The notes under the pieces were generated by a model. That model had not been told where the DNA came from. It made no database searches and saw only the letters and a list, made by a program, of their open reading frames with translations. Both the position numbers and the translations under genes were made by a program. From NCBI GenBank assembly GCA_038213625.1, contig JBBQST010000001.1, forward strand, positions 1 to 50,734: a DNA stretch of 50,734 nucleotides. Direction: 5' to 3'. Of this stretch, positions 2,571 to 43,044 are shown piece by piece; positions within the stretch are counted from its first letter, which is position 1, and each line of letters begins with the position of its first letter. This DNA comes from Thermoflexales bacterium. Lineage in GTDB: Bacteria > Chloroflexota > Anaerolineae > J036 > Brachytrichaceae.

Positions 2571-2574
2571 GATG

Positions 2575-2651
2575 TGGTGGGCGACACTGGACTCGAACCA
2601 GTGACCTCTTGCATGTCAAGCAAGTGCTCTAACCAGCTGAGCTAGCCGCCC
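2575..2651 (-). tRNA. tRNA-Val (anticodon GAC), CCA encoded
   Basis: The reverse complement folds by hand into a 77-nt cloverleaf: GGGCGGC/TA/GCTC-AGCTGGTTA-GAGC/A/CTTGC-TTGACAT-GCAAG/AGGTC/ACTGG-TTCGAGT-CCAGT/GTCGCCC/A/CCA. The anticodon loop TT-GAC-AT gives Val. Confidence 0.95.
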
Positions 2652-2814
2652 GCGTCGCGAGCCATCTCGCGGCGGTGAATCTACCAGACGCGTCCACGGC
2701 CGTCCCGGGCCATCGCGCTCGATATGGCTTCGGTGCCGATTGCAAGGGCACTGCAAGCGGGCTCGGGGGTTTTCATCCTGCCCAGGCCCGGTGGTCCGTG
2801 GCTACGGTCTCGTC

Positions 2815-3030
2815 ATGGCGCACGAGGCCTCGCGGCACGACCGGAAGATGACGATCAGCGACGCTCTGAAGGCCCTGCGCACGGCATCGCGGGATCGTCA
2901 TGCGGCCCTGCCCGGCACGCCGGAGTACGAACGAGCCGACGCCGAGGAGCGGCGCCTGGGCCGATTGGTCTGGACTCTCGCCGACGTCATCGACGATCGC
3001 ACCGCGGCACCCGCCCTGCCGCTCGACTGA
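2815..3030 (+). CDS. small hypothetical protein (71 aa)
   Basis: Internal ATG of ORF 2740..3030(+). Third-codon positions are almost all G/C, as in the genuine genes of this GC-rich segment. No recognisable family. Confidence 0.4.
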   Translation: MAHEASRHDRKMTISDALKALRTASRDRHAALPGTPEYERADAEERRLGRLVWTLADVIDDRTAAPALPLD

Positions 3031-3321
3031 TCCGCGGGCCGTCGCCCGATCGGGCATGACAAGGCCCACGACACCTGTCGTGGGCTAACGTCGCCGGTCC
3101 TCGTTCCGATGGCCACGGATCCGCTTGGTTCACGAGTGTTCCACGTCCGTGCCGAAGCCGTGACCGCCGGATCGAGGAGCCAGCGGCGACGCGCATCATA
3201 CCCCGAGGGCTCGATGAGCGATAGCGCCCCGGCGGCCGCGGTCGCAGCGCAGGTCCGGGCCGCGCCCGGCCCGGATCCTGTGCTAGCCTCGGTCGGTTTG
3301 CACGGAGGAGCACCACCAGCG

Positions 3322-5485: not shown

Positions 5486-5530
5486 TTGACCGGTATTGAC
5501 CGGTATTGACCGGTATTGAGTGAATTGACC
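5486..5530. repeat. 10-bp tandem repeat TTGACCGGTA x3 plus two degenerate units
   Basis: ttgaccggta occurs at 5486-5495, 5496-5505 and 5506-5515, followed by ttgagtgaa and ttgacc. The array lies between the stop of 5530..6213(-) and the start of the 5430 gene. Confidence 0.85.
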
Positions 5531-6213: not shown

Positions 6214-6385
6214 GTGAATACCTCCTGATGTCCGAAAACCAATATACGTGTGATCAAGCCTGAACCGGCTTGCAGGTAAGTTGGCGGCTGGCTGCTGGCA
6301 GTTAGCCGCTAGCAGCCAGCCGCCAATCCCGCCATCCACTTCCTTCCCTATTGCTAATAAACGGGTGAACGGTAAGATTTGCGGC

Positions 6386-7795
6386 ATGAGCACGACTTTG
6401 ATCAAAAACGGGCGGATCATTACGGCGTCAGATAACTACCTGGGCGATTTGCTGATCGATGGCGACAAGATTGCGCTGATCGGCGACGGGTTGATGGACA
6501 AGGGTGCGGACGCCGTCATCGACGCCAAAGGCAAATATCTGCTGCCCGGCGGCATCGACGTGCACACCCATCTGGACATGCCGTTTGGCGGCACCGTCAG
6601 CAGCGATGATTTTTTCACCGGCCACAAAGCCGCGCTCTTCGGCGGCACCACGGCCCACGTGGATTTTTGCATTCAGCCCAAAGGCGCCAGCCTCAAGGAA
6701 TCACTGGATTTGTGGCATGCCAAGGCCAACGGCAAGGCCGCGATGGACTACGGCTTTCACATTGCCATTACCGATTTAACAGACGAAGTGATGATGGAGA
6801 TTCCCAAGCTGCCGAGCTACGGCGTCACCAGCATCAAACTGTTCATGGCCTACAAAGGCGTGCTGCAAGTTGATGACACCTCACTGTTCAAGTGCTTGCA
6901 AGTGGCCAAGCAAAGCGGCGTGCTGACGATGGTTCATGCCGAGAACGGCGATGCGATTGATGTGTTGATCAAAGAAGCACTGGCAGCCGGCAACACCGAC
7001 CCGATCTACCACGCCCTCACCCGCCCACCCGAATTGGAGGCCGAAGCCACCTACCGCGCCATTCAACTGGCTCGAGCGGCCGGCGACGCGCCCCTATTCG
7101 TCGTGCACCTGACCAATGCCGGTGCGTTGGCGGCGATTAGCGAAGCGCGCGCGCGTGGGCAGCACGCCTACGCCGAGACGTGCGTGCAATATTTTTATTT
7201 CACCAAGGACAACTTGAACGGCACCACCGGTGAAGGCGGTGATGAGTTCAACGGCGCCAAGTGGGTGTGCAGCCCGCCCTTCCGCGAGACCCACGATCAG
7301 GCAGCCCTACTGCGCGGCATTCGCACGGGCGACCTTGTGTCAGTGAGCACCGATCACTGCCCCTTCAAATACGCGGGGCAGAAAGATTTGGGCAGGGGCG
7401 ATTTCTCCAAGATTCCCAATGGCGTGCCTGGGATCGAAGACCGCATGATGATGCTGTGGAATGCGGCCGTGAGCACGGGCCAGATTACGCCGAGCCGGTT
7501 TGTGGAATTGACAGCGACGAACCCGGCCAAGCTGTTTGGCATTTACCCGCAGAAAGGCACGCTCTCGGTGGGCAGCGACGCCGATATTGTGATCTGGGAC
7601 CCCAAGGCCAAATACACGATCAGCGCAAAGACCCACCACATGAACATCGACTACAACTTGTATGAGGGCATCAGCGGCGTCGGCAAGCCGAGCAAAGTGT
7701 TACTGCGCGGCGAGTTGGTCGTGGATGGCAAGCGCTGGCTGGGCAGCAAAGGCAGCGGTCAGTTCTTGCAGCGCAAGAGCCCGACGATGATCTAG
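6386..7795 (+). CDS. D-hydantoinase / dihydropyrimidinase (cyclic amidohydrolase)
   Basis: ORF track 6281..7795(+). I moved the start to ATG 6386 (MSTTLIKNGRII...). Metal-binding signature GGIDVHTHLDMPFGGT and overall amidohydrolase layout. Confidence 0.9.
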   Translation: MSTTLIKNGRIITASDNYLGDLLIDGDKIALIGDGLMDKGADAVIDAKGKYLLPGGIDVHTHLDMPFGGTVSSDDFFTGHKAALFGGTTAHVDFCIQPKGASLKESLDLWHAKANGKAAMDYGFHIAITDLTDEVMMEIPKLPSYGVTSIKLFMAYKGVLQVDDTSLFKCLQVAKQSGVLTMVHAENGDAIDVLIKEALAAGNTDPIYHALTRPPELEAEATYRAIQLARAAGDAPLFVVHLTNAGALAAISEARARGQHAYAETCVQYFYFTKDNLNGTTGEGGDEFNGAKWVCSPPFRETHDQAALLRGIRTGDLVSVSTDHCPFKYAGQKDLGRGDFSKIPNGVPGIEDRMMMLWNAAVSTGQITPSRFVELTATNPAKLFGIYPQKGTLSVGSDADIVIWDPKAKYTISAKTHHMNIDYNLYEGISGVGKPSKVLLRGELVVDGKRWLGSKGSGQFLQRKSPTMI

Positions 7796-7909
7796 AGCGG
7801 AGAGCGATGAGCTGGGAGCTTAGAGCATGAGCGGAGGTCGCCACCGTCTTGATTCAACTCTTTGCTCCTCGCTCACAGCTCACAGCTCTGTGCTCATCGC
7901 TCTCCGCTC
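7795..7909. repeat. heptamer-periodic long inverted repeat filling a convergent intergenic gap (bidirectional terminator-like)
   Basis: Left arm gagcggagagcgatgagc (7795..7812) is the exact reverse complement of gctcatcgctctccgctc (7892..7909). The left half is GAGCNNN x6 and the right half NNNGCTC x7. The arms overlap the stop codons of the hydantoinase gene and queA. Confidence 0.85.
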
Positions 7910-23414: not shown

Positions 23415-23458
23415 TGAGAACCATTTGAGAACCATTTGAGAACCATTTGAGAGCCATT
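23415..23458. repeat. 11-bp tandem repeat TGAGAACCATT x3 plus one variant, immediately upstream of a start codon
   Basis: tgagaaccatt occurs at 23415-25, 23426-36 and 23437-47, and tgagagccatt at 23448-58. The ATG of the next gene is at 23473. Confidence 0.85.
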
Positions 23459-30372: not shown

Positions 30373-30471
30373 GGGGAGTAGCGAGTAATCAGTAGTCAGT
30401 AGTTAGTAGTCAGAAATGAACTTAGTCGAGTTTTCATCTGACTACTGACTACTGACTACTCGCTACTCCCC
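30373..30471. repeat. heptamer-periodic (NAGTAGT) hairpin element between bchX and bchY
   Basis: Left arm ggggagtagcgagtaatcagtagtcagtagttagtagtcaga (30373..30414), right arm tctgactactgactactgactactcgctactcccc (30437..30471). The fold is an 11-bp outer stem, a 7-nt bulge, and a 24-bp inner stem with one T:G. Confidence 0.85.
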
Positions 30472-30474
30472 GCT

Positions 30475-31641
30475 CTACTCGTAGTACGGCGCAGCCGTAA
30501 ATCGCAAATCCGCCATCTTGAAGGTTTCGCCGCTATGAGACAGGGCCGACAAAATCGCGATCTTGCTGTCCATCTCGTCGCGCGGGTCGCCGAAGATGGC
30601 GTCCCAGCCGGTATCTGTTGTGACGACGACGCCGCGCTCCGGCTCTTCGACCAATCGCGTCACCGTCAGGCCCATCTCTTGCATGATGCGGCGCACGACC
30701 AGTTTGCTGTCTTCGCTGTACTCGGCGCTATTCAAATCGATACTCTGTGCGGCCAGCGTGGTGTGGCCCATCAGATCGTCCATGCTGGCACCGATCGGCA
30801 AGCCTGGCGGCTCTGATGCGCCAAAAACATCGAGGAATTCGTCGTACTCCAGCGGCGTCACTTTGTCGGGCACGGTGTAATCGCGGCGGTGAATCTTGTT
30901 CACAAATTGATCGAACAACGAATCCATCTCCGGCAAATCGAACAGGAGTTTGCAGCGGTCGCTCAGCGCGCGCGCGGTTGGATTAAACGGCACCTTCACC
31001 AAAATCGGCAGGCCCACCCGCTCGGCAAATTTCTCGGCCACGCCGCTGCCGTCATCGCGGTTCAACACCATGCCAATCACGCGGGTCTTGCCGCCCATGC
31101 TCTGGAAGTAGCTAACGGCGCGGGCGATGTTATTGGCTGCATACAAACTCATCCGGTCGTGGCTGGCGATGATCACGATCTCCTCGGCCAGGCTCTTGGC
31201 AATCGGGGTGGCAAAGCCGCCGCACACCACATCGCCCAGGAAATCCATGACGATGTAATCGAGCGCCCAATCGGCCATGCCGCGCTCTTCGAGCAGACCA
31301 AAGCCAAAGCTGATGCCGCGCCCGCCGCAGCCGCGGCCCACTTCGGGGCCGCCCAATTCGGCACCATACACGCGGGCCTTGTTATCCAGCTCGGTCTTAA
31401 AAATCAAATGCTCAACGCCGAGTTCCTTCTCGCGGTTGGCGTCCTTCATCATGCGCCATTGGTCGCCGATGGTGGGCAGACCACGGCCATCAAACAACGC
31501 ATTACACGAATCGTGTTTAGGGTCACACCCCAATTGCAACACGCGCAATCCCTTCAGCGCCATCTTCGCGCTCAGGTTCGCCGTGAAGAAACTTTTGCCA
31601 ATGCCGCCTTTTCCATAAATTGCAATCATTCTTGGGGACAT
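30475..31641 (-). CDS. bchX: chlorophyllide a reductase iron protein subunit X
   Basis: ORF track 30475..31662(-). I moved the start to ATG 31641 (MSPRMIAIYGKGGIGKS...), 6 nt after GGAGG. NifH/BchL/BchX P-loop, ...GGPEVGRGCGGRG..., ...DFLGDVVCGGF.... Called X because it sits beside bchY/bchZ. Confidence 0.9.
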   Translation of the reverse strand: MSPRMIAIYGKGGIGKSFFTANLSAKMALKGLRVLQLGCDPKHDSCNALFDGRGLPTIGDQWRMMKDANREKELGVEHLIFKTELDNKARVYGAELGGPEVGRGCGGRGISFGFGLLEERGMADWALDYIVMDFLGDVVCGGFATPIAKSLAEEIVIIASHDRMSLYAANNIARAVSYFQSMGGKTRVIGMVLNRDDGSGVAEKFAERVGLPILVKVPFNPTARALSDRCKLLFDLPEMDSLFDQFVNKIHRRDYTVPDKVTPLEYDEFLDVFGASEPPGLPIGASMDDLMGHTTLAAQSIDLNSAEYSEDSKLVVRRIMQEMGLTVTRLVEEPERGVVVTTDTGWDAIFGDPRDEMDSKIAILSALSHSGETFKMADLRFTAAPYYE

Positions 31642-31690
31642 ATAAAACCTCCACAAACACACATCATTTGCAACGCGTTGGGGTTTGCTG

Positions 31691-32671
31691 TTATTGAGCC
31701 GGCCATTCCAACACCATCTTCAAGCAATTCACATCGTTAAATGCCACATCGAACGCCTGTGACGCATCCTCGGCCTTCATACGATGTGTCACCAGATCAT
31801 CGACATTGAGCGCCTTGTCGCGTATCAGGTCGCGTGCAGCGGCCAGATCGCCCGGGGCCCACTGCATGCTGCTGACCAATGTCAATTCTTTTAGAAATAC
31901 GGGTTGATAGGGCAGGTTGATGCAGTCGTAATAACCCAACAACACGACCCGGCCGCCGCGCCCCATGCGCATCAACCACGGCGAGATCGCCTCCATCTTG
32001 CCAGTCGCATCAATCAGCACATCCACACCTTTTATTGCAGCAAATTCAGCTCCAGAAAGCTGCAAATCCGATGCTGTATTCAGTATGGCATCGGCCTTGG
32101 AATAATGCAAACGCGCGTCTTCTTTATCCGTCACAATGAGCTTGAGCGCCTTGTTTCCACGTGCTTTTACGATGCGCGCCGCAAGCTGGCCCACGATGCC
32201 CTGACCAAGTATGACCACCGTTTTTGGCGCGTCCGACGCCACCAGCCCAGCCTGATTCACGCCATGCAGCGCCGTCGCCGCCAATGCCAGCAACACGCCT
32301 TGTTCCGGCGTCAACGTCTGCAAATCAGTCAGGTGCGTTTTCGGCGCAACGATGTATTCGCTCTGTCCGCCAAATGCTGGATTCACGCCGAGGAAGCCGT
32401 AATTGCCGCCGACATAGACTCGCTTGCCCAACCATTCATCTGCGTTGTCACCGGCCTCAATCACCTCACCCACCGTCTCATATCCCGGCACCACCGGAAA
32501 TTGCAACATTGGGTGCGGCATCACCCCTTTCAACAACATGCGCTCGGTACCGGCGCTAATACTGGTCAACTGTGTCCTAATCAGCACATCATCTGCGCCG
32601 ATGGGTTTCAGCTCAACATCCTGCATCTCAATCGTGTTCGCCGCAGGAATCACAATAGCCTTTGTTCTCAT
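31691..32671 (-). CDS. bchC: 3-hydroxyethyl bacteriochlorophyllide a dehydrogenase (MDR family)
   Basis: ORF track. ...LTSISAGTERMLLKGVMPHPMLQFPVVPGYETVGEVIEAG... matches the BchC pattern (SGISTGTE..L..GRMP.FPG..YPLVPGYE.VG). Confidence 0.85.
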   Translation of the reverse strand: MRTKAIVIPAANTIEMQDVELKPIGADDVLIRTQLTSISAGTERMLLKGVMPHPMLQFPVVPGYETVGEVIEAGDNADEWLGKRVYVGGNYGFLGVNPAFGGQSEYIVAPKTHLTDLQTLTPEQGVLLALAATALHGVNQAGLVASDAPKTVVILGQGIVGQLAARIVKARGNKALKLIVTDKEDARLHYSKADAILNTASDLQLSGAEFAAIKGVDVLIDATGKMEAISPWLMRMGRGGRVVLLGYYDCINLPYQPVFLKELTLVSSMQWAPGDLAAARDLIRDKALNVDDLVTHRMKAEDASQAFDVAFNDVNCLKMVLEWPAQ

Positions 32672-32823
32672 AAAAACAATTTGTCAAATTCAATGCACGA
32701 CTAATCGGATTTTTAGACAGAATGAACAGAATTTAACAGAATGAAGACACTTCCCCATTCTGTTAAATTCTGTCTAAAATCCCCGACCGATCAATCAATT
32801 ACACAAAGAATTGGATGGTTAAG

Positions 32824-32991
32824 TCACTGCCCCAACCACGACATCACCATTCCAATCTCAAAAATGATCACTGCCGGCACGCCAATGATGACCGCGATCA
32901 TCACCAGCCGGCACACCGACAACCCCGCCTGTGGCGCATTCACCTTTTTGCTCTCAGCCGAATACGAACGAGACATCTGTTTTGCAATCAT
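32824..32991 (-). CDS. unannotated 55-aa single-TM protein, translationally coupled (ATGA) to the upstream ORF
   Basis: Hand translation: MIAKQMSRSYSAESKKVNAPQAGLSVCRLVMIAVIIGVPAVIIFEIGMVMSWLGQ. GGAAGGA lies upstream. The ATG overlaps the TGA of 32988..33305. Confidence 0.4.
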   Translation of the reverse strand: MIAKQMSRSYSAESKKVNAPQAGLSVCRLVMIAVIIGVPAVIIFEIGMVMSWLGQ

Positions 32992-33451
32992 GACCGTCCT
33001 TCCTTTTCGAGCGCCTGGCCATACACCTGCTCATACACCTCGGCATACGGCTTCAACGCTTCGTAAACGTGATGGGGCACGACACGCCCTTCCATTTTGG
33101 GGAACTTCTCGCGCACGTAATTCAAATTGCGAATGAGCTTGAACTCAATCGCCCAACGCGCAAATTCCAGGCCGCGTGGGCCGGTGGTGCGCTGCATGAA
33201 GGCGATGAATTTGCGCAGCAGCCACGGCGGCATCGTCTGTGGCTTTGCGCCAGAATGGCGGCTGCGCCAGAATGGCGGCTGCGCCACATATTCGGCGACA
33301 AACACGGCTTGTTACCGCGGCTCTCGCGCACTTCATCGGCAGTGCGTGCATCACTGCAAATTTTGGGCCGGCCCTTCAGCCGCTCCTCAGTGTTCAGCAA
33401 GGTCAGTGCGGTGATACCCTTGGTCGGCGCATCCAATTCAATCTCGTTCAT
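32988..33451 (-). pseudogene. unknown-function ORF split by a 17-bp tandem duplication (frames 33122..33451 and 32988..33305)
   Basis: The two ORF-track frames differ by 2 nt. Removing one 17-nt copy joins them in frame into ~148 aa: MNEIELDAPTKG...NMWRSRHSGAKPQTMPPWLLRKFIAFMQRTTGPRGLEF...EKEGRS. Confidence 0.55.
33247..33280. repeat. perfect 17-bp tandem duplication (plus 6 nt of a third copy)
   Basis: gcgccagaatggcggct occurs at 33247-33263 and 33264-33280, followed by gcgcca at 33281-33286. Confidence 0.95.
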
Positions 33452-33457
33452 GTGACC

Positions 33458-33901
33458 TCAAACCGCATAGCCGCTCGGTTTAGCCGGCGTTAATCGTGTC
33501 AGGAAACCCACCACAAACGCGGCGCTGATCAAGTGCATCAATTCAGCCGCGACCACGGTGGCCGTGTCGAAAATCTCGGCCCCCTGCATATACGGTGCCA
33601 TCGCCGCCGATATCGGCCCCAGCGCATACACCACCAACACGATTGCACTAATTGCAATAAAAATCGAGTTGGGTTTGCGGGTGAATCGAACCAACAACGC
33701 ATACACAATGCCACCACCCAACGCGCCAATCAGGCTAAAAACAAGCACTTCGGCCAATGGCACTTTCAGGCCAGCAATAGCATTGCCGATAAACCACACC
33801 ACGCTATTCGCCACCGCACTGCCCACGCCAGCCACAGCCGTCGCTTGCGCAATCTTGCCGAACCCAACCCGTTCACTTTTCATTTCACTGGTCATTGCCA
33901 T
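33458..33901 (-). CDS. small 4-TM membrane protein, unknown function
   Basis: ORF track 33458..33955(-). I moved the start to ATG 33901 (MAMTSEMKSE...), 7 nt after GGAGG and 13 nt after the bchH stop. Confidence 0.65.
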   Translation of the reverse strand: MAMTSEMKSERVGFGKIAQATAVAGVGSAVANSVVWFIGNAIAGLKVPLAEVLVFSLIGALGGGIVYALLVRFTRKPNSIFIAISAIVLVVYALGPISAAMAPYMQGAEIFDTATVVAAELMHLISAAFVVGFLTRLTPAKPSGYAV

Positions 33902-33914
33902 CACTACACCTCCA

Positions 33915-36900
33915 TCAAACCCGCACACCTTCCAACCGATCTTCCAAATCGGCATACAACGCTTTCAGTTGATCCACCGTGTCGTCATCGGCCTTCCACA
34001 ACCCGCGCCCACTCGCCTCCAGCAGCCGGCCCACGATGTTGCGCATGGCCTGGGGATTCGCCTTGGTCAGCCGCTCGCGCATCTCGGCATCCAGCGCAAA
34101 CGTTTGCGCCGCATCCTTGTAAATCCAGTCATCCACGCTGTCGCTCACGGCATCCCAGCCCAGCATGTAGGTAAAGCGGTTGCTAATCTCGGCCGCGCCG
34201 CTGTGGCCGTGCGAGAGCATGCCCTCGTACCACTTGGGGTTCAGCAGCTTGGTGCGGTACTCCACCCGCAACACTTTGTCCACATCCTCAATGCGTGTCT
34301 CGGCTGTGTAGGTCTCGATGTAGTTCAACTTCACCGTGCCACCCGTGCGCTTCTTCGCTGCCATCTGCAACGCGCCGCTGGACGAAAAGTAATGGTCAAT
34401 GTCGGTGACGCCAAACTCCACGCTGTCGATCTCCTGCACCACCCGGCCCACCGTCCCCAACAACTTGCTCAGCATGGGACCGGCCGCTGCACCCGCACGT
34501 CCACCACCGTAGGCGTAGCCGATGCGCCGCACAAACGTGCTGTCCAGATCGTCGGCGCTCTCCCACGCGCTGTCGTCGACCATGTCATCGACATAGGTGC
34601 CATACTGGCCTGGCTGCTGGGTGAACATGCGCGCCGTGGCCGTCTCGAATGCGACGCCACCGCGCATCGCCTCATCCACATGCTTGCGAATGAAGTTCAT
34701 CTCGCACGGCTCATCGGCCCCCGCCGCGCTGCGCACCAGCTTGTCCAAAAAGTCCATCGTGATCTCGAAGGTGTCTCGAAAAATAGGGCTCAACTGCATC
34801 AACACGTCCACGCGCGGCCGCTTCAATTCACCCAGTGGAATCAGCGCATAGTGGCTGATCTTGCCCTGCCCGTCGTAGGCCGGCTTCGCGCCGATCAACC
34901 CCAACACCGTGCCCACGGCCTCGCCCTTGGTCTTGATCGTGTCCAAGCCCCACAGCACTTGCGCAATGGTTTCAGGATACGCGCCAGTCTCCTCCACATG
35001 CTTCTGCAAAATCGCCTCGGCAATGTGCGCGCCCTTGGTGTAGGCCAGTTCGGCCGGAATGCGCCACGGATCAATCGCGTGAATGTTGCGCCCCGTCGGC
35101 AACACGCTCAAGCCATCGCGAATCAAATCGCCGCCGGCATTCGGCAAAATGTAGCCGCCGCTCAGGCCGCGCAACAAGCCATTGATCTCGCCGCGGTTGT
35201 CGCTCAACATCTGCGCCATCTGCCGGCCCTGCCGCACCATCTCATCCAGCGCGTGCAAATCCTCAGATGAACCATGTCCACCAAACGCCTTCTCAACCGC
35301 CGCCGCCAGACTCAAATCCCCAAACACGGCTCCTTCCACAAACTCGCGCGCATGTTCCTCAATCGCCTCGCGCATCCGAATCGCCGCCGCATCACCCTTG
35401 CGCGCCAGTGCGGCCAACTCGGTATAAGACGACGGGAGATGGGGGACGGAAGACGAATCGCCGTCCCCCGTCTCTCGTCTCCCGTCTCTCTCCCACACCG
35501 CCCTCGTCGCAATCGACGTCAGCGAATGCCCATTTCCCCGCGCCTTCATCGCCTCGGTCACCATCGTCATCTGGCTCTGCACCGGCGTCGCCTCGCCAAA
35601 CACATGCAAGGTGCCACTGATCAGCCGTTGCTCAAGGTCACGCAAATACGCATACAGCCGGCTCACATACACATCAAAATGTTCACCCTCGACCCGCGGG
35701 CAATCCGTATCCAGATTCGCCAACTCCACCTTCTTCAATATCGCCTCAGCCCGCGCATCGTCCCCATTTCTGCCTTCTGCCTTCTGCCTTTTGACTTCTC
35801 GATAATCCGCCACCATGTCCTTCAGCGCGATCAATTCTTTATACAAACCGGCTCGCATCATCGGCGGCACGTTGTGCGAGATGATCGTGGCATACCCGCG
35901 CCGCTTGGCAATGTTGGCTTCACTTGGGTTGTTCATCGGGTAGATGTAGAGATGCGGCACCTCGCCCACCATCGCATCGCTCCAGCAACTGCGCGTCACG
36001 CCCAGTTGCAAGCCCGGCATCCACTCCACGCTGCCGTGCATGCCCAGATGCACCAGCGCATCAGCCCCGAAGCAACGGCTGATCCAGCGATAGAACGCGG
36101 CATATTGGTGGTGCGGCGCGTTGTCCTTGTCGAACAGCAGCCGCATCGGGTCGCCCTGCACACCGATGCGCGGTTGCACGCCGATGTAAATATTGCCCAT
36201 GCGCAGGCCGCCCATAAACACGCGGTCGTTGCCCAACGGCGCAACATCCCCAGGGAATGCACCCCAGCGCTCCTCGATGCGTTCGCGCTCGCGCACGCTC
36301 AACACATCCGCAAATTGGGCCCGTGTCATCACATGCTCGCTCTTGTAGGCCGAGGGATGGCCGGTATCGGTGGTGTTCTCGATCAGCTCCAACAGCGCTT
36401 CCGGCGTCTCCGGCAAGCTGCCCACGTTGTAGCCCGCTGCCTGCATCTCGCGCAAAATGTTGAGCAGGCTGCGCGGCACATCTAATAAGGCGGCCGTGCC
36501 TTTTTTGCCGTAGCCGGGTGGATAGTCATACAGCACAATCGCGACCTTCTTGTCGGCATTCGGCGTGTGTCGCAGCTCGGCCCAGCCTTTGGCCAACGTG
36601 GTCAGCCGCTTCAGCCGATCCGGCACCGTGGCGAACTTGCCGTTGTTGATCGCGCCGATGACCACGGGATTAATCGCGCCGTCCATCTCCGGCAACGAGA
36701 ACAATGTCGCGCTCTGCATCGGCCCCGCGCCGTTCTGCGCCCACGAGCGAAAGTCCTGCACAAACAGCGGCTGCGCCACGATATACGGCACATTTAACCC
36801 ACCCAGCACGTCTTCAACCACCTGTTTTTGCAGACCCGGCTTGGTGCTGCCCGCCGGCCCGCCCACAAACGCAAAGCCGATCATGCTCACCAGCACGTCA

Positions 36901-37865
36901 ATCGGCTCCTTGGAAATGAAGTCGCGCACCGCCACGTGGCCCTCGATGCCGGCCACAAACATCGGCAGCACCTCCATGCCCTCGGCCTCAAACGCCCGAA
37001 TCGCATCATCGATATAACTGCGCTCCTGAGCCAGATGCTTGCGAAAGAACATCAGGGCAACCCGGCGAGGCTGGTTACTGGCGGCTGGTTGCTGGCGGCT
37101 GGTGATTTGGACAACACCTGTCCCCGGCTTCCCTTTCTGCCTTTTGCCTTCTGCCTTCTGCCTTTCTCCATCCGCCTTCTGCCTTTGTTTCACCCATCCG
37201 TTGTAGCTCTTAATATCTCGAAAGAACGCCGGCGCATCGGGGTGATACACGCCCATCATCGGCATCTCCACCGCCGCCGGCACGTCTAGTTTCTTGCCAA
37301 AATATTCGTTCAAGATCAGCTTGAACATGCTCGTGATATTCTGCTGCAACGGCTGGTTCCAATACACATTCACCGTCATCCAGTTCTTAAAATCGCGCAT
37401 CTTGGCCGGCATAAAGCGCATGGCCGTTTGCATCACCTTCATCAGCTTGGTGTAGCCATAGAGTGCGTCCTCCTCGCGGCCCTTCACCAGCATCATCGCG
37501 ATCTTCTTCACCGGCTCGGGCATACCCGCCTTCTTGCCACTGTTCGCCACGACATAGTCGCCGACCTTGTTCAGGGCCATGATCTCGGGCATCGACTCAA
37601 ATGCAAAAATAGTCTTGGCGTGGGATTGCGCAATTTGCTCATGCAAAAACTCGGCCGCATCGTGCTGGTGCAACATCGATAAAAATACGCAATCGGCCTC
37701 GCGAATCTGCTGCCCCAACGTCGCATCCTTGCGATCCAGCTCCACATCAGTCCAGCGATTCACTTCGGCAACTTCAGACAGCTCCTGCTGCACCTGCTTC
37801 CACACGCCGTGGTTAAACTGCTCCATCCCCACAATCGCGACAATCTTTGGTTTCATATTCTTCAT
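33915..37865 (-). CDS. bchH: magnesium chelatase large (H) subunit
   Basis: ORF track, 1316 aa. CobN/Mg-chelatase H architecture throughout (...HLGMHGSVEWMPG..., ...YVDDMVDDSAWE...). Adjacent to bchD/bchI. Confidence 0.95.
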   Translation of the reverse strand: MKNMKPKIVAIVGMEQFNHGVWKQVQQELSEVAEVNRWTDVELDRKDATLGQQIREADCVFLSMLHQHDAAEFLHEQIAQSHAKTIFAFESMPEIMALNKVGDYVVANSGKKAGMPEPVKKIAMMLVKGREEDALYGYTKLMKVMQTAMRFMPAKMRDFKNWMTVNVYWNQPLQQNITSMFKLILNEYFGKKLDVPAAVEMPMMGVYHPDAPAFFRDIKSYNGWVKQRQKADGERQKAEGKRQKGKPGTGVVQITSRQQPAASNQPRRVALMFFRKHLAQERSYIDDAIRAFEAEGMEVLPMFVAGIEGHVAVRDFISKEPIDVLVSMIGFAFVGGPAGSTKPGLQKQVVEDVLGGLNVPYIVAQPLFVQDFRSWAQNGAGPMQSATLFSLPEMDGAINPVVIGAINNGKFATVPDRLKRLTTLAKGWAELRHTPNADKKVAIVLYDYPPGYGKKGTAALLDVPRSLLNILREMQAAGYNVGSLPETPEALLELIENTTDTGHPSAYKSEHVMTRAQFADVLSVRERERIEERWGAFPGDVAPLGNDRVFMGGLRMGNIYIGVQPRIGVQGDPMRLLFDKDNAPHHQYAAFYRWISRCFGADALVHLGMHGSVEWMPGLQLGVTRSCWSDAMVGEVPHLYIYPMNNPSEANIAKRRGYATIISHNVPPMMRAGLYKELIALKDMVADYREVKRQKAEGRNGDDARAEAILKKVELANLDTDCPRVEGEHFDVYVSRLYAYLRDLEQRLISGTLHVFGEATPVQSQMTMVTEAMKARGNGHSLTSIATRAVWERDGRRETGDGDSSSVPHLPSSYTELAALARKGDAAAIRMREAIEEHAREFVEGAVFGDLSLAAAVEKAFGGHGSSEDLHALDEMVRQGRQMAQMLSDNRGEINGLLRGLSGGYILPNAGGDLIRDGLSVLPTGRNIHAIDPWRIPAELAYTKGAHIAEAILQKHVEETGAYPETIAQVLWGLDTIKTKGEAVGTVLGLIGAKPAYDGQGKISHYALIPLGELKRPRVDVLMQLSPIFRDTFEITMDFLDKLVRSAAGADEPCEMNFIRKHVDEAMRGGVAFETATARMFTQQPGQYGTYVDDMVDDSAWESADDLDSTFVRRIGYAYGGGRAGAAAGPMLSKLLGTVGRVVQEIDSVEFGVTDIDHYFSSSGALQMAAKKRTGGTVKLNYIETYTAETRIEDVDKVLRVEYRTKLLNPKWYEGMLSHGHSGAAEISNRFTYMLGWDAVSDSVDDWIYKDAAQTFALDAEMRERLTKANPQAMRNIVGRLLEASGRGLWKADDDTVDQLKALYADLEDRLEGVRV
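35431..35479. repeat. in-frame hairpin insertion inside bchH (GACGRRA-type heptamers)
   Basis: A 19-bp stem (35431..35449 pairs with 35461..35479; 17 Watson-Crick pairs and 2 G:T) with an 11-nt loop. Translated on the minus strand as ...ERDGRRETGDGDSSSVPHLPSS.... Confidence 0.75.
35768..35795. repeat. in-frame heptamer array TTCTGCC x3 plus one variant inside bchH
   Basis: ttctgcc occurs at 35768-74, 75-81 and 82-88, then ttttgac. Translated as ...EVKRQKAEGRNGD.... Confidence 0.8.
37071..37183. repeat. compound in-frame repeat insertion in the N-terminal part of bchH
   Basis: ctggttactggcgg/ctggttgctggcgg/ctggtg (37071..37104) and seven consecutive NNNNGCC heptamers, mostly ttctgcc (37135..37183). 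Translated as ...KQRQKADGERQKAEGKRQKGKPGTGVVQITSRQQPAASNQPRR.... Confidence 0.8.
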
Positions 37866-37926
37866 GCCTTGTTTTTAAGGTTTCTAAAGTGGGCAGGTTG
37901 TTAAAGTTTGCGACGCAGTCTCATCA

Positions 37927-37980
37927 ACCTTAAAAACCTTAAAAACTTTACAAACTTTACAAACCTTTTAACCTCTTTAA
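37927..37980. repeat. AT-rich 9-bp tandem array in the bchD-bchH spacer
   Basis: Units are accttaaaa x2, actttacaa x2, accttttaa and cctctttaa (37927..37980). Complementary copies tttttaaggt (37872..37881) and ttgttaaagtttg (~37898..37910) lie upstream. Confidence 0.75.
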
Positions 37981-37983
37981 CCT

Positions 37984-39903
37984 TCAGCCCGCTCCGTCAA
38001 TCGCCGCCACAATCTGCCCGGCTTTGGCATTCGGCAAATACACATATCGCCCGTCCAGCCACTTCGCCAGCCTCGGCGCTTCGCCGCGCGAGAGGTAGTT
38101 CGCCTGGGTGTCAATCACCACCGCGCCCACCCCATCGGCCGCAATCAACGCGCTCAGTTGCTTCAACTCATCCTCAATCTGCTGCTTGGCCGTTGGCTGC
38201 TGGCCGCCAGCCGCTAGCCGCTCTTTGCCCCCCGCTCCTCGCTCTCCGCTGATTCCCACATTCCCCCGCCCATCCGTCATCACAATCAAGGTCGTGTTGG
38301 GAATGCCCTTGCGGCGCGATTGCTGCGCCATGTCCCAGCCCAGCATCAGCGCACTCGCCAGCGGCGTGCCACCGCCAGTCGGCAACACATCCAGTTCGCG
38401 CTTGGCCTGCTCCACGCTCTGGCTCGGGGCCAGCAGCACCTGCGCCTGCTGCCCGCGAAACGACACCAGCGCCACCCGGTCGCGATGCACATACGCGTTC
38501 TGCAACAGCCTGGCCACCGCGCCCTTGGCCTGCCGCATCCGGTTCAACGCCATGCTGCCGCTCGCATCCACCACAAACACAAACAACGTGCCGGCCTTGT
38601 CTCGAAACTTCTTGACGCGAATATCTTCTTTGGTGATGAGGACGGAAGAGAGACGGGAGACGGAGGACGGAGGACGGTTCAGAGAAGGCGTCGGTCGTTC
38701 GTCTCCCGCCGTCTTCCGTCTCCCGTCCTCCGTCTCCCGCCTCATCTTCTGCCACGGCGCCGCCGCCAGCAACGTCGGCAACAACGCCAGCTTGTGGCCG
38801 CGCATCTCGCCCTGCACCGCTCGCACAAACTTGCCACGCTTGTCGTTGAGCTGAACCCCACGGCTACCACTCTTGCCGCGCCGCGAGGTAAATGGCAGAT
38901 TCAACACATCGCCCGGCAATGCCGCTTCCACCGCGCTCAGTAATAGCTCTTCAATTTGGGGTTGCGCTTCAGGCTGAGGCGGCTCCGGCGTGTCCTCGTC
39001 TTGTTGCTGCTGCTCTGGCTTGGGCTGTTGCTCTTGTTGCGGCGGGGGTTGATCGGGCTGCTGCTCCGGCTCAGGCAGTCGCGTCGCACGCGGCATCAGC
39101 ACCAGTTTGGCCGCAGCCTGCAAATCCTCGTCGTCCACGGCATCACGCCCACTCAGTGCGGCATGGGCCAGGGCCGCTTTGGCCGCAAATACATCGGCCC
39201 GGTTGCCCTCCACACCCAGACTCAGCGCCGCCTGCGCAATGCCTTCAAGCTGCTCATCGCTGATCGTGATGGATGACAACTGCTCGCGCGCAAATCCGAT
39301 CATGCCGCGCAGCATGGCCATCTCATCGGTCTCTTGCTCAAGCGAATTAAGTGGCGCTGCAATATTTCGCCGCACGACTTCGGCCCGCGCCTGCGTGTCG
39401 CCGTTCGACACAAACGGCACAATCAGGCCAATGCGATCCAGCAAGCCGCCGCGCACGTTGCCATCGTTGCTGTCGTAGGTGCCCATCAACATGAAGTGGG
39501 CCGCGTGCACGGCACTCAAGCCTTCGCGCTCGATCCGCACTTCGCCCCGGCTCATCGCATCCATCACCTGGGTCACCACTGCGTCATCCAACAAATTCAA
39601 GCCATCGACATTGAGCACGCCGCCATCGGCCTTGGCCAGCAAACCCTGCTCCACCACCCGCTGGCCCGTCGCCAGGGCCGCTTCAAGATTCAAGCCGCCG
39701 ATCAAGCGATCCTCAGTGATATTCAGCGGCAACTCCACAAACGGCGTGCCGTCAGGCAACAGGGCCGCAAAGGCCCGGGCCAGTGTGCTCTTGCCCGAGC
39801 CCACCGCCGCCGCCATGGCCACACCGCCCAGGCTCGGATCCACCGCAAGCAGCAATAGTGCTTGTTTTGCAGAGTCGAGGCCAACGATGTCAGACCAGTT
39901 CAT
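37984..39903 (-). CDS. bchD: magnesium chelatase D subunit
   Basis: ORF track. N-terminal AAA+-like half, acidic/Pro-Gln-rich linker (...EPEQQPDQPPPQQEQQPKPEQQQQDED...), C-terminal vWA domain with MIDAS motif VVDASGSM. Confidence 0.95.
   Translation of the reverse strand: MNWSDIVGLDSAKQALLLLAVDPSLGGVAMAAAVGSGKSTLARAFAALLPDGTPFVELPLNITEDRLIGGLNLEAALATGQRVVEQGLLAKADGGVLNVDGLNLLDDAVVTQVMDAMSRGEVRIEREGLSAVHAAHFMLMGTYDSNDGNVRGGLLDRIGLIVPFVSNGDTQARAEVVRRNIAAPLNSLEQETDEMAMLRGMIGFAREQLSSITISDEQLEGIAQAALSLGVEGNRADVFAAKAALAHAALSGRDAVDDEDLQAAAKLVLMPRATRLPEPEQQPDQPPPQQEQQPKPEQQQQDEDTPEPPQPEAQPQIEELLLSAVEAALPGDVLNLPFTSRRGKSGSRGVQLNDKRGKFVRAVQGEMRGHKLALLPTLLAAAPWQKMRRETEDGRRKTAGDERPTPSLNRPPSSVSRLSSVLITKEDIRVKKFRDKAGTLFVFVVDASGSMALNRMRQAKGAVARLLQNAYVHRDRVALVSFRGQQAQVLLAPSQSVEQAKRELDVLPTGGGTPLASALMLGWDMAQQSRRKGIPNTTLIVMTDGRGNVGISGERGAGGKERLAAGGQQPTAKQQIEDELKQLSALIAADGVGAVVIDTQANYLSRGEAPRLAKWLDGRYVYLPNAKAGQIVAAIDGAG
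38635..38746. repeat. in-frame imperfect inverted repeat of GGNNGAC heptamers inside bchD
   Basis: Left arm gatgaggacggaagagagacgggagacggaggacggaggacgg. Right arm ...gtcttccgtctcccgtcctccgtctcccgcctcatc. The outer 7 bp gatgagg/cctcatc are exact. Translated as ...RRETEDGRRKTAGDERPTPSLNRPPSSVSRLSSVL.... Confidence 0.7.
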
Positions 39904-39918
39904 ATGAATACCCAGGCA

Positions 39919-41025
39919 CTAGAGCGCACGCGCAACGCGCTCATCCGAATCCACAATCTCAAGCGGGTCGCGCCGCAGCCGATGCCGCAATGCCGCGGTC
40001 GCCATCACTTTCACATCGTCATACTTCACGTCGATGGGGCCGTGGGCGGCCTTGGATTGAAACGCCGCGTAGGCACAGGCGGCTCGCGTCACGGTCAGCT
40101 CGCCGCGATGCCCATCGATGCCGAGCTTCATACACAACTCGGCGGCACGCAGCAACACGTCGTCGGGCATCACCACCTCGTGCAAAATCTTTTGGGCGTG
40201 CACAATGCGTTTGCGCAATTGCTGTTGTTGCGGCTCCCACATCTGCATAAACGCGGCAGGGTTCTCGTCAAACGCACGCCGGCGCTTCACAATTTCCACG
40301 CGCTCCTGCACATTCGTAATCGTGGTGATGCGCGCGTGCAGGCCAAATCGATCCAGCAATTGCGGCCGCAACTCGCCCTCCTCAGGGTTGCCGCTGCCCA
40401 CCAAAACAAATCGGGCCGGATGTTTGATGCTGATGCCTTCGCGCTCCACCACATTCCAGCCACTGGCGGCCACGTCCAACAACACATCCACCAAATGGTC
40501 ATCCAGCAAGTTCACTTCATCGATGTAGAGAAAGCCGCGATTGGCCTGGGCCAGCAGGCCCGGCGCAAAGCGCTTCTCGCCCCTGGTTAGCGCGGCTTCA
40601 ATATCAATCGTGCCGCACACGCGATCCTCAGTCGCACCAAGCGGCAGATCAACCACGGGCACGGGGATCTTCTCCAGCTTCTGAGACGACGGACGACGGA
40701 CGATGGACGACCCATCTTGCCGTCGTCCGTCGTCTGTCGTCTGTCGTCTCTGCTTCTGATCCACGTCATCCACCGTCTCTCTGTTATAGACATCCCCTTC
40801 AATGCGCTTGATGGCCGGCAACACATCGGCCAACGCGCGCACGGTCGTGCTCTTGCCGGTGCCACGATGCCCCATCACCATGACCCCGCCAATGCGTGGG
40901 TCAATTACATTCAGCAGCAAACACAGTTTCATCTCCTCCTGACCGACGATGGCGGTGAAGGGAAACGAAGTATTCAATGCATTGAGCGCGTTCAGTTCGG
41001 CATGGGGAGTGCTATGAGTCGACAT
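39919..41025 (-). CDS. bchI: magnesium chelatase I (ATPase) subunit
   Basis: ORF track. ...FPFTAIVGQEEMKLCLLLNVIDPRIGGVMVMGHRGTGKST... (Walker A), ...GFLYIDEVNLLDDH... (Walker B), ...ARFVLVGSGNPEEGELRPQLLDRFG.... Confidence 0.95.
   Translation of the reverse strand: MSTHSTPHAELNALNALNTSFPFTAIVGQEEMKLCLLLNVIDPRIGGVMVMGHRGTGKSTTVRALADVLPAIKRIEGDVYNRETVDDVDQKQRRQTTDDGRRQDGSSIVRRPSSQKLEKIPVPVVDLPLGATEDRVCGTIDIEAALTRGEKRFAPGLLAQANRGFLYIDEVNLLDDHLVDVLLDVAASGWNVVEREGISIKHPARFVLVGSGNPEEGELRPQLLDRFGLHARITTITNVQERVEIVKRRRAFDENPAAFMQMWEPQQQQLRKRIVHAQKILHEVVMPDDVLLRAAELCMKLGIDGHRGELTVTRAACAYAAFQSKAAHGPIDVKYDDVKVMATAALRHRLRRDPLEIVDSDERVARAL
40684..40751. mobile_element. 68-nt palindromic (GACGACR heptamer) element inserted in frame in bchI, flanked by 7-bp direct repeats
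   Basis: Arms 40684..40711 and 40722..40749 pair at 28 of 28 positions (25 Watson-Crick, 3 G:T) with a 10-nt loop. gcttctg occurs at 40677..40683 and again at 40752..40758. 68 + 7 = 75 nt = 25 codons (...QRRQTTDDGRRQDGSSIVRRPSSQK...). Confidence 0.55.
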
Positions 41026-41028
41026 GTT

Positions 41029-41496
41029 TTAGGACTGTGTATCGAGAACCCGAGCTGCCTTGCGCTGTTTGGCGGCCATCAAGCCGCGCCGGCCAAATTG
41101 AATAAAGTTCACTACGTAGGAGATCAATGCCACCAACATCACAGTCATTTGCAGTCGTTCACTGGCCCCAAACAGCCACGCGGCAATAAACGCCAGATGC
41201 AGCACCAGCGAAACCGCATTGATCATGTCTTCCCAGAAAAATTCCTTGGCCAGGAAATACTTGCCATACACATCGAACTCCCAGGCCATGCCGGTGATGG
41301 TGATAAACACCATCATCACGACTTTGATGGATGATGCGATATGCGCGGCCATGTAACCCTGGCCGGTCGCAAAATATTGAATCACCAGAATCAGGCTGAC
41401 AATAAACGTGAGGAATTGCACCGGCGCAGTCACCGCCTGCACCGGCGTCCATAGAGATTCATTGCGTCGCCGCAGTTGATCGGGGGTGTAGTTCAT
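41029..41496 (-). CDS. bchF: 3-vinyl bacteriochlorophyllide hydratase
   Basis: ORF track. ...YTPDQLRRRNESLWTPVQAVTAPVQFLTFIVSLILV...GKYFLAKEFFWEDM... closely follows the BchF pattern I remember (YTPEQRRRRDESRWT.VQ...LQF..F..SL.LV...GKYLFA.PFFWED). Confidence 0.9.
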   Translation of the reverse strand: MNYTPDQLRRRNESLWTPVQAVTAPVQFLTFIVSLILVIQYFATGQGYMAAHIASSIKVVMMVFITITGMAWEFDVYGKYFLAKEFFWEDMINAVSLVLHLAFIAAWLFGASERLQMTVMLVALISYVVNFIQFGRRGLMAAKQRKAARVLDTQS

Positions 41497-41509
41497 CGGA
41501 AGAAAGTAA

Positions 41510-41597
41510 AGAGTATGAAGTAGTCAGTAGTCAGTAGTCAGTAAGCATTGCCGTGCCTGTCTTTACTGGCTACTGGCTACTGACTACTTCATACTCT
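41510..41597. repeat. heptamer-periodic (CAGTAGT) hairpin element between the pucC-like gene and bchF
   Basis: 41510..41544 pairs with 41563..41597 over 35 positions (33 Watson-Crick, 2 T:G). The loop is ~15-18 nt. The repeat unit is the same as in the 30373 element. Confidence 0.85.
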
Positions 41598-41598
41598 C

Positions 41599-43044
41599 CT
41601 ATGCCGCCTCAATCGTCAGGCCCAGTTGTTCACGTGTCATGCGACGGAACTTTTGCACGTCCACTTTGGCCATCAGATTCACGGCCACCACGCACAGCAC
41701 TGTGCTGGTCATGAAAATAGAGGCATAGCTCAATGAGAAATTACCAGTGAGAGCGATACCGGCATCACGAATGCCGCCGCCAACAAATTGCGAGAAGCCG
41801 TTGGCCAGGGCCTGCGACATGCCCCACGCGCCCATCAGCGAGCCAGTCTGGCCCGGCACCGTCATGTCCATCATCATGCTCAGCGCGCCAACATTGAACG
41901 TGCCCATGCCAAAGCCCAGGGTGAGCAGGCCGGCATACAGCAACGGCAGCACTTGGGTGATCGCCGAGGCCGCCAGCAACGCAAATCCAATCATGGAGAT
42001 GATCGCGCCCACATTGGCAATGCTGCGCTTGGGGATGGGCCAGCGGCTGGCCACGATACCCGTGATCAGCATGGCCAGAATCGTCATCCCGCCCATCATG
42101 CTCTGGAAGCTGCTGGTCTGTGAAGCCGACAGCTTGAAGACATCACCGCCAAACGGCTCCAGAATGTTGTCTTGCAGGAACAGGCCAAAAATGGCAATAA
42201 ATATGAAGAAGAAGAACACGCGAGTTTGGGTGTTGCTGAAGATGCCCGTATAGGCTTCCTTTAGATTCAGATGTGGGCGCGCTTGCACGGTCTTGAGTTC
42301 CTCACCGCTAACCTTGCGCTCCAGCCCTAGGAGCGGCAGCAGGCCGATCAGACACACGACCGGGCCAACCAGGAACAGCGATGGCATCAGACTCAGGGCC
42401 ACTTCACTGCGACCCGCCACGCACTGCGCTGTCACGCAGGCTGCTTCGATGCCGGCTTTAAGCTCGGCGTTACGCAACACGATCGACACCGTGATGCCGC
42501 TGGCGACAATGGCAACCAGTTGGAACAGCCACACCGCACTGACCACACCGGGCCGGTTCTTCTTGCCCTCGGTCAGCTCGGCAATCAAAGTGTTGTGGCT
42601 GTCACCGTTCATGGCAAAGCCGAGACCAAACACGACCATGATCAGCAGCATGTACACCAGCGCGAATGTATTGCCCTGAGCAAACATCGGTGCCGCATAG
42701 GGCAGCGGAATCAGCGCAATGGCCGAGAGCATCAGCCCAATGAACATCATCGGAGTGCGGCGCAGACCGAAGAGGGTGCGCCGGTCGGCAATGCGCCCGT
42801 TCACCACCTGGAAGATATTCATCAGGTTGTAGGCGAGATACAACAGGCCGACGATAGTGGCACCGATTTTGAGTTCGGTGATCATCACCCGGTTGTAGAC
42901 CGATAGCAGCATGACGAATAGATAGGCCACACCGGCCTTGGGCAACATCAGCCGCAAAATGTGAATGAAGGGCAAGGTGTCTGCCTGAACTCGTTCAGTT
43001 TTTCCAGACTTGGCTGTCCGAAACCGGGGGAGAGAAAAAGACAT
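41599..43044 (-). CDS. pucC: PucC/BCD-family MFS protein (second copy)
   Basis: ORF track. GGAGG lies 7 nt before ATG 43044. ...YNRVMITELKIGATIVGLLYLAYNL...NGRIADRRTLFGLRRTPMMFIG... and 12-TM layout. Confidence 0.85.
   Translation of the reverse strand: MSFSLPRFRTAKSGKTERVQADTLPFIHILRLMLPKAGVAYLFVMLLSVYNRVMITELKIGATIVGLLYLAYNLMNIFQVVNGRIADRRTLFGLRRTPMMFIGLMLSAIALIPLPYAAPMFAQGNTFALVYMLLIMVVFGLGFAMNGDSHNTLIAELTEGKKNRPGVVSAVWLFQLVAIVASGITVSIVLRNAELKAGIEAACVTAQCVAGRSEVALSLMPSLFLVGPVVCLIGLLPLLGLERKVSGEELKTVQARPHLNLKEAYTGIFSNTQTRVFFFFIFIAIFGLFLQDNILEPFGGDVFKLSASQTSSFQSMMGGMTILAMLITGIVASRWPIPKRSIANVGAIISMIGFALLAASAITQVLPLLYAGLLTLGFGMGTFNVGALSMMMDMTVPGQTGSLMGAWGMSQALANGFSQFVGGGIRDAGIALTGNFSLSYASIFMTSTVLCVVAVNLMAKVDVQKFRRMTREQLGLTIEAA

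Follow-up and report, generated by a model that had tools for sequence, protein, structure and literature searches.

The stretch of DNA analysed here (the window; 50,734 nt, contig JBBQST010000001.1 of a Thermoflexales bacterium) is an entire metagenome contig and carries a photosynthesis gene cluster of the type-II-reaction-centre kind. Pfam searches placed pucC (41599-43044), bchF (41029-41496), bchI (39919-41025), bchD (37984-39903), bchH (33915-37865), bchX (30475-31662) and bchY (28899-30356) on the minus strand, together with bchC, bchZ and an MFS gene. The Mg-chelatase genes bchI, bchD and bchH form a block (33915..41025); their assignment was also based on homolog alignments and, for bchI, on alignment with ChlI/BchI sequences from the PDB. 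This run of genes contains palindromic elements that can fold into long hairpins, two of them in spacers (E1 and E5) and three within the Mg-chelatase genes. A preliminary description had paired four of these elements and reported that every imperfect stem position was G:T on the plus strand, i.e. A:C on the mRNA strand. The architecture and turnover of the hairpins, and the origin of this asymmetry, are the subject of this study.

Architecture of the hairpins

Each of the named hairpins consists of tandem heptanucleotides followed by an inverted array of their complement. The repeat unit is AGTAGTC in E1 and E5, GACGACG in bchI, GGAGACG/GGAGGAC in bchD and of the GACGGGA type in bchH. The period of 7 is specific: the window contained 10 perfect lag-7 runs compared to 0-2 for the other periods from 3 to 15, and dinucleotide shuffles contained none. 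Tandem Repeats Finder (TRF) reported period-7 rows at every element. All of the elements folded far better than shuffled sequences on both strands (z −3.3 to −11.8).

E1 (30373..30471) and E5 (41510..41597) are heptamer hairpins of N-CAGTAG units that were identified by TRF, inverted-repeat searches and folding, as DNA in the case of E1. E1 fills the bchX-bchY spacer, beginning 3 nt past the bchX stop codon and ending 16 nt before the bchY ATG. Similarly, E5 fills the pucC-bchF spacer from 1 nt past the pucC stop codon to 13 nt before the bchF ATG. The remaining three hairpins are in frame on the minus strand. The bchI hairpin (40683..40750; aa 92-115, QRRQTTDDGRRQDGSSIVRRPSSQ) lies in the variable loop of BchI, as judged from pairing, translation and homolog alignment, and the bchD hairpin (38650..38743; aa 387-418), found by inverted-repeat search, folding and translation, lies in the BchD linker. 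The bchH hairpin (35431..35486; aa 794-812, DGRRETGDGDSSSVPHLPS), identified as an inverted repeat and by translation, occupies a site that is variable in the BchH alignment. TRF and translation placed two further features in bchH, a direct (GGCAGAA)n heptamer array (35768..35799; aa 689-700) and a pair of adjacent non-complementary heptamer arrays (37069..37186; aa 227-266). In two related loci, L247 and L251, the site orthologous to the former carries a GACGAC hairpin.

The bchI, bchD and bchH open reading frames (ORFs) of the window continue uninterrupted through the hairpins, and the encoded peptides are hydrophilic. Homologs and solved ChlI/BchI structures show variation or gaps at the in-frame sites. 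We conclude that the hairpins are maintained at set positions that tolerate them, in the spacers between cistrons or in disordered loops and linkers of BchI, BchD and BchH.

The hairpins also have a fixed polarity. A G-rich or purine-rich arm lies 5' and a C-rich arm 3', on both strands, and this arrangement is seen across phyla. All 73 hairpins of the CAGTAG type had the G-rich arm at the 5' side, as did 37 of the 45 built from other heptamers (37 vs 8). As the search pattern was strand-neutral, this polarity is not a sampling artefact.

RNA evidence came from four mat metatranscriptomes, in which the locus was represented only by sparse contigs without direction. One undirected contig of 151 nt covers positions 41520-41670, which comprise most of E5 and the 3' end of pucC, and has sister-strain variants at 41569, 41576 and 41583. 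E5 is therefore probably transcribed together with pucC, although residual DNA in the RNA run could also account for the contig. E1 is not followed by a T-run in either direction, and TTACTTTCTT comes after E5 only when the sequence is read in the direction of the mRNA. A scan of the window gave no intrinsic-terminator call for E1 or E5, and thus did not support a terminator function of these elements. At the gathering score, Rfam 15 matched only a tRNA (2578-2651) in the window and six related loci.

Turnover between strains and relatives

The window was compared with four contigs of a 95.7%-identical strain (L001-L004) and with one contig of an 83%-identical relative (L005), all of which are syntenic with it. 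All indels between the window and the sister strain were in or beside repeat arrays. Most were 7-nt steps in E1 and E5 and a 14-nt step in bchH relative to L001/L002, or replacements of the whole sequence in bchI and bchD. The 7-nt indels of E1 relative to L001 occurred in either arm, and E1 of L001 contains a compensated unit pair, AGTAATC:GATTACT. The N position of E5 also differs in L001. In L005 the pucC-bchF spacer contains a hairpin of another heptamer (CAGATNN), such that the site was kept but the sequence was not. With L005 as outgroup, the bchI hairpin of the window is the derived allele, as L001 and L005 share an older AGTCAAA-type array. For bchD it is L001 that is derived, with a TTGAGAA-type hairpin in place of that of the window. 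Logan DNA contigs break off at the arrays and gave no clean alleles.

The bchI hairpin of the window (40683-40750) aligned over ~95 nt with bchH hairpins of two more distant relatives (L251 12115-12181; L247 14981-15040). The encoded peptides are near-identical (RRQTTDDGR...SS..V.RPSS), and the similarity extends ~15 nt into both flanks. Since the same ~95-nt hairpin is found in bchI of the window and bchH of relatives, hairpins can be copied between loci; the alignment suggests ectopic copying by microhomology. This was the one case of an in-frame palindrome shared by different genes, and no additional copy emerged from a search with a 57-aa composite of the encoded peptide. The bchI hairpin has the 7-bp direct repeat CAGAAGC on both sides. 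A target-site duplication was rejected as the origin of this repeat, since ~51 nt of the ancestral sequence has been lost as well, which identifies the event as a replacement.

Two further observations concern the translated arrays of relatives. The BchI-loop motif SKIxNxKSK is encoded in these loci by direct heptamer arrays (AAAATCG, AAATCGC, AATCCAA and AGTCAAA) at L247 10268-10297, L248 7282-7304, L246 10287-10306, L251 5192-5222 and L001 ~3590-3650. Thus, the array at this site is old and the apparently conserved peptide motif is repeat-derived. Several reading frames are also broken at arrays. In L001 (7248-7294, equivalent to window ~37090-37103) a 14-nt deletion that is not found in L002 shifts the frame and splits bchH. 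In L005 (12321-12328, equivalent to window ~38690) an in-frame stop within the hairpin splits bchD, and in L246 (11203-12346) the N-terminal part of bchD was not called. These frame breaks could reflect phase-variation-like switching or assembly error.

Mismatched positions in the window

Re-pairing of the stems showed that the eight G:T or T:G pairs of the preliminary description are present. Ungapped pairing gave T35440:G35470 and G35435:T35475 in bchH, G40691:T40742, G40698:T40735 and T40704:G40729 in bchI, and T41531:G41576 and T41538:G41569 in E5, while T30404:G30447 of E1 was found in a register with a 7-nt bulge. The two plus-strand G:T pairs of the bchH hairpin are A:C in the mRNA. As RNA, the plus strand folded better for E1, bchH, bchI and E5.

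The observation as a whole was only partly confirmed. One arm of E1 has four units and the other three; each strand bulges the mispairing unit and retains one wobble. In its own best register the minus strand has one G:U pair and a 7-nt bulge, as does the plus strand, and the DNA folding energies are equal (−35.9 vs −35.9 kcal/mol). When E1 is paired without gaps, the plus strand has A30388:C30456. A distance of 7 nt separates the two N-position mismatches of bchI, and likewise both mismatches of E5; each such pair is one variant heptamer repeated in tandem rather than two independent events. Moreover, on the sense strand one arm of bchI has A,A,A,G where the other has T,C,C,C, a pattern that is a shifted unit boundary and not two point mutations. 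The bchD element, which had been left unscored, has, on the plus strand, A38653:C38740, A38671:C38722 and G38672:T38721, and neither of its strands folds better than the other. At the same sites the 95.7%-identical sister strain has A:A, G:A and sense-strand G:T.

The tally of independent events in the window is ~6 vs 2 (p=0.29) rather than 8/8. The earlier argument that such one-sidedness had a chance of 1/256 therefore fails, given the symmetry of E1, the tandem duplication of mismatches and the omission of bchD. Likewise, the statement that plus-strand A:C does not occur holds for the chosen subset only, as bchD has two such mismatches. The intergenic elements E1 and E5 have no real strand signal.

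Strand bias in related loci

A census was carried out on the loci of this lineage with reliable gene calls (the window, L001, L005 and L246-L251). The sense strand of ORF-embedded hairpins had 25 A:C, 5 G:U and 8 transversion mismatches. Ten intragenic elements leaned towards A:C, one towards G:U (the bchD hairpin of the window) and one was tied (sign test p=0.012). Among the intergenic hairpins at these loci the ratio of A:C to G:U was 8:9, which differed from the intragenic ratio (Fisher p=0.018). We conclude that the A:C-on-sense asymmetry is genuine, but only in ORF-embedded copies; a strand preference across all copies, which the preliminary description proposed to look for in a wider census, holds for the intragenic hairpins and not for the intergenic ones. 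Its statement that the hairpins are not optimised for the bch mRNA is supported for the intragenic copies, as their sense strand has A:C rather than G:U.

Transversion mismatches, which break the stem on both strands, were not clearly depleted (8 vs 30 transition mismatches, with a background transition:transversion ratio of ~3:1). Substitutions outside the hairpins, polarised with L005, served as control sites. Here plus-strand C>T and A>G together were balanced by G>A and T>C (window lineage, 29 vs 32; sister lineage, 39 vs 38), and per base plus-strand G>A exceeded C>T.

Beyond this lineage, (AGTAGTC)3 was widespread: no fewer than 120 metagenome contigs contained it, as did at least 120 contigs of GTDB genomes, and its hosts included Acidobacteriota, Cyanobacteria, Chloroflexota, Planctomycetota, Firmicutes and other phyla. 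In the external hairpins, elements with two mismatch events were concordant at the level of chance (15 same vs 14 mixed). A comparison of which arm departs from its own unit consensus gave no pattern (80 vs 112).

Reading frame as the probable source of the asymmetry

We favour, with moderate confidence, the explanation that the elements are hairpin-forming microsatellites and that the frame in which the mRNA strand is read accounts best for their one-sided mismatches. Slippage in 7-nt steps, together with copying from one arm or locus to another, would lengthen, shorten and replace the arrays. Any transition in a stem would appear as A:C on one strand and G:T on the other. Within an ORF the sense strand is not free to gain T, because T is the first base of every stop codon and, as the middle base of a codon, specifies hydrophobic residues. 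Changes that create G:U would thus tend to be filtered out while those that create A:C survive, and the non-coding strand would look optimised as a side effect.

Codon-level analysis of the stems is consistent with this scheme. At 6 of 23 sense A:C mismatches examined, the pairing T would give an in-frame TAA or TAG, and at ~10 others a hydrophilic loop would acquire Leu, Ile, Met, Val or Cys. By comparison, the base changes examined at three sense G:U pairs were synonymous or, in one case, conservative (Ser/Pro). When all paired stem positions were considered, transitions creating G:U would produce 14 stops and 49 hydrophobic gains (63/232), whereas those creating A:C would produce 2 stops and no hydrophobic gain (2/232). 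Successive units of a heptamer array pass through all three frames, so that no position of the unit escapes the codon filter. These results establish that a frame constraint exists, and the avoidance of stops at mismatches is direct evidence that the hairpins are translated. From this we infer that the constraint is the main cause of the one-sided mismatches, and the intragenic asymmetry is most readily understood as a side effect of selection acting on the coding strand, not as evidence that the opposite strand is the folded species under selection.

Several points weigh against this explanation. A simple codon filter predicts ~58% A:C, compared to the observed 83% (raw P=0.003), although the raw counts include non-independent tandem duplicates and do not constitute a clean test. 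This surplus over the filter suggests a second ORF-specific pressure, probably against long uninterrupted RNA helices that would hinder translation or attract RNase III, that adds to the bias. Each mismatch of the window bchH and bchI hairpins could be repaired harmlessly on one side, and hence the constraint biases the direction of change but does not force mismatches. In 109 non-redundant external hairpins, most of them intergenic, sense A:C exceeded G:U by 80:57 (p=0.06), or by 61 vs 47 once period duplicates were collapsed (p=0.21), and by 24 to 14 with strict gene context; gene calls in this set were crude (longest-ORF rule) and stems were scored without gaps. This bias is a weak trend only, but a lean in the same direction among mostly intergenic hairpins is not predicted by a purely coding explanation. 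Finally, the lineage census comprises only 12 intragenic elements, some of which may share ancestry.

Alternative explanations

The most serious competitor, which we consider possible but clearly less likely, is that the main driver is selection against very stable mRNA structure in ORFs. An A:C mismatch every few base pairs would break the helix for ribosomes and RNase III, and plus-strand G:T would be the by-product. The restriction of the bias to ORFs (25:5 vs 8:9) and its excess over the codon-filter value are both as expected, and in the mRNA the 29-bp stem of bchI is cut to helices of 8 bp or less, compared to 29 continuous pairs on the plus strand. However, transversions should be favoured equally under such selection, yet they are not enriched (8 vs 25 A:C). 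In addition, the mRNA hairpins are still very stable (−41 to −67 kcal/mol as RNA), and the bchD hairpin folds equally on both strands.

Somewhat less probable is a mixed explanation in which the elements are distinct, widespread and actively propagated palindromic microsatellites with fixed polarity and in-frame copying (bchH to bchI). In this case the residual A:C-on-sense excess would come from a strand-specific process at the DNA level or from a function of the non-coding strand, and not from coding constraint alone.

The preliminary description had suggested that the plus (non-coding) strand is the functional folded species, either an antisense RNA or single-stranded DNA recognised by a strand-specific protein, in which G:T is tolerated. 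We regard this as doubtful. In its favour, bchH, bchI and E5 form the more stable fold on the plus strand, the intragenic hairpins of relatives lean in the same direction, as do the external hairpins weakly, and background mutation would not yield the pattern. Nevertheless, the intergenic hairpins of the lineage are unbiased. E1 is symmetric and bchD reversed, transversions are not clearly depleted, concordance within external elements is at chance, and a consensus scan found no promoter-like site beside the elements on the plus strand. A codon-level cause also exists. Selection on the plus strand is not required to account for the pattern, the plus strand is not supported as the selected species, and the earlier interpretation as a whole is only partly supported.

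It is improbable that the hairpins are mobile elements resembling repetitive extragenic palindromes (REPs), Rickettsia palindromic elements (RPEs) or miniature inverted-repeat transposable elements (MITEs), mobilised by a HUH enzyme of the RAYT/IS200 type working on a single DNA strand, with the mismatch polarity reflecting that strand. The heptamers do contain GTAG (in AGTAGTC) or CGTC (in the complement of GACGACG and GGAGACG), both of which are REP tags, and REPs and RPEs are known inside ORFs (PMC3733652). Furthermore, the window bchI hairpin is homologous to the bchH hairpin of relatives, and contigs with CAGTAG hairpins also have GTAG-type REP-like hairpins. However, the tags of the window elements are paired and recur every 7 nt instead of forming a single unpaired foot, and the stems are 19-35 bp compared to 5-13 bp for REPs. 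The sequence varies from site to site, no clean target duplication was found, the change at bchI was a replacement, and the hairpin-peptide search gave no further copies. A Pfam scan of 40 window ORFs, the gene-level check on the REP/RAYT or IS200 link raised earlier, found no HUH/Y1 transposase domain. This link is therefore not supported.

Strand-asymmetric mutation (replication- or transcription-linked deamination), which had also been raised as an alternative, is very unlikely: the bch elements do share one orientation in a cluster with negative plus-strand GC skew throughout, but the balanced control sites contradict it, the per-base excess of plus-strand G>A over C>T would favour plus-strand A:C, the opposite of what was observed, and the bias is absent from intergenic hairpins of the same operons.

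Two consequences follow. First, a signature of one optimised strand can come from the reading frame alone when palindromes lie in genes, which calls for caution in inferring the selected strand from wobble counts. Second, fast-evolving 7-mer hairpins are translated in BchI, BchD and BchH, their alleles are replaced between strains that are ~96% identical, and the frame can be broken by steps of 7 or 14 nt. Should these frame-breaking variants prove genuine, the arrays could act within populations as on-off switches of bacteriochlorophyll synthesis.

Other repeats and features of the window

A GAGCNNN heptamer hairpin (7795..7909), identified by TRF, inverted-repeat search and folding, lies between a convergent amidohydrolase gene (plus strand) and queA (minus strand), and its minus strand is the better folder. 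Inverted-repeat search, folding and pairing also identified a short heptamer-like hairpin (GGCGGCT/GGCTGCT; 6281..6326) with one plus-strand G:T.

One sub-family of CAGTAG hairpins has a 55-67-nt loop with a conserved oriented core, GCTGACGCTGACAC, and most copies end a few bases before an ATG ('CTACTTCTCTTATG'). Copies are found at L023 286-385, 11294-11417 and 12409-12537, L044 6722-6847, L087 632-776, L091 5327-5436 and 7860-7984, and L165 1736. The sub-family had no Rfam match, and its mismatches (5 G:U vs 9 A:C) are too few for a conclusion. It looks like a 5' untranslated region or promoter-associated element.

Repeats of other periods were also seen. The bchD-bchH spacer (37871-37984) contains a 9-mer array (AACCTTAAA x4.7) and an imperfect inverted repeat with small indels between strains. 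Upstream of bchC (32712-32778) is a perfect 18-bp hairpin of 9-10-nt repeats (ACAGAAT...) that was called terminator-like on the minus strand; in the sister strain (L001 11521-11598) this hairpin has a 9-nt insertion and is perfect over 33 bp. An 11-mer repeated four times (TGAGAACCATT; 23415-23458) lies 15 nt upstream of the ORF at 23473, and a 10-mer repeated 3.4 times (TTGACCGGTA; 5486-5519) is situated in a spacer. The latter two repeats may be protein-binding sites.

The window also contains pufLMC, crtB, bchG and bchP, which lie outside the minus-strand bch run. Positions 1-4000, with threonyl-tRNA synthetase, the tRNA at 2578-2651 and a TMEM260-like gene, have a GC content of 67-69% compared to 52-63% in the rest of the contig, and may be an island or an assembly chimera. 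The sequence is present in DNA runs from freshwater sediment, glacier and microbial-mat metagenomes. The closest named relatives of its BchI are from Chloroflexota metagenome-assembled genomes, with ~72% identity.

Comparison with known systems

The puf mRNA of Rhodobacter contains intercistronic hairpins that stabilise the transcript of a photosynthesis operon. By analogy, spacers of a photosynthesis operon are occupied here by the very stable stem-loops E1 and E5, and the pucC-bchF site keeps a hairpin across relatives at ~83% identity. Unlike the puf hairpins, the sequence of the window elements turns over completely, and the same kind of hairpin also occurs inside ORFs.

In quasi-palindrome template-switch mutagenesis (the Ripley model, with the Escherichia coli thyA hotspot as an example), one arm of an imperfect inverted repeat templates the other. 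Such template switching would explain the matched variable positions of the two arms and the compensated unit pair of E1 in L001.

RPEs are palindromic DNA segments of ~100 nt that lie in frame in conserved protein genes at positions of surface loops, and the same element is found in different genes. They have a conserved family sequence and lack heptamer periodicity. The window elements differ in that they are heptamer-periodic and have only one cross-gene copy (bchI/bchH). RPEs are mentioned together with REPs, which are short palindromes tagged with GTAG or CGTC that are intergenic or in frame in ORFs, and on which RAYT acts on one DNA strand (PMC3733652). Like REPs and bacterial interspersed mosaic elements (BIMEs), the window hairpins are palindromic, occur between genes or in frame in ORFs, and contain GTAG or CGTC. 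Unlike REPs, they have no family consensus: the five bch elements use differing heptamers, orthologous sites in sister strains carry unrelated sequences, and only the simple AGTAGTC unit recurs, across many phyla. Nor do they have an unpaired tag at the foot of a 5-13 bp stem; their stems are two to three times longer and are built of tandem 7-mers. No RAYT gene was found among the 40 window ORFs scanned with Pfam. The elements also differ from IS200/IS605, in which imperfect hairpins near the ends, with set cleavage positions, flank a TnpA gene, as the window gave no TnpA/Y1_Tnp match and the hairpins stand alone in spacers or inside ORFs.

The closest resemblance is to heptanucleotide simple sequence repeats (SSRs). 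Known examples include the short tandemly repeated repetitive (STRR) sequences of cyanobacteria, over-represented heptamer SSRs, TAACTGA of Beggiatoaceae and GGGAATC of Xanthomonas; they are mostly next to start codons or between genes, and occasional inverted pairs can form stem-loops (PMC4679880, PMC4692102). Slippage has been proposed as their mechanism. The window elements share the 7-nt unit, the tandem arrays and the variation in copy number and sequence between close strains, with head-to-tail period 7 enriched and copy number changing in unit steps. Unlike these repeats, the arrays of the window are systematically paired into hairpins of 19-35 bp in which each arm matches the other at the variable positions of the unit, the 5' arm is in every case the G-rich one, and three of the arrays are translated in essential pigment-synthesis genes. 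We conclude that the window elements are a variant of the known heptamer repeats that is polar, turns over rapidly and is translated inside Mg-chelatase genes.

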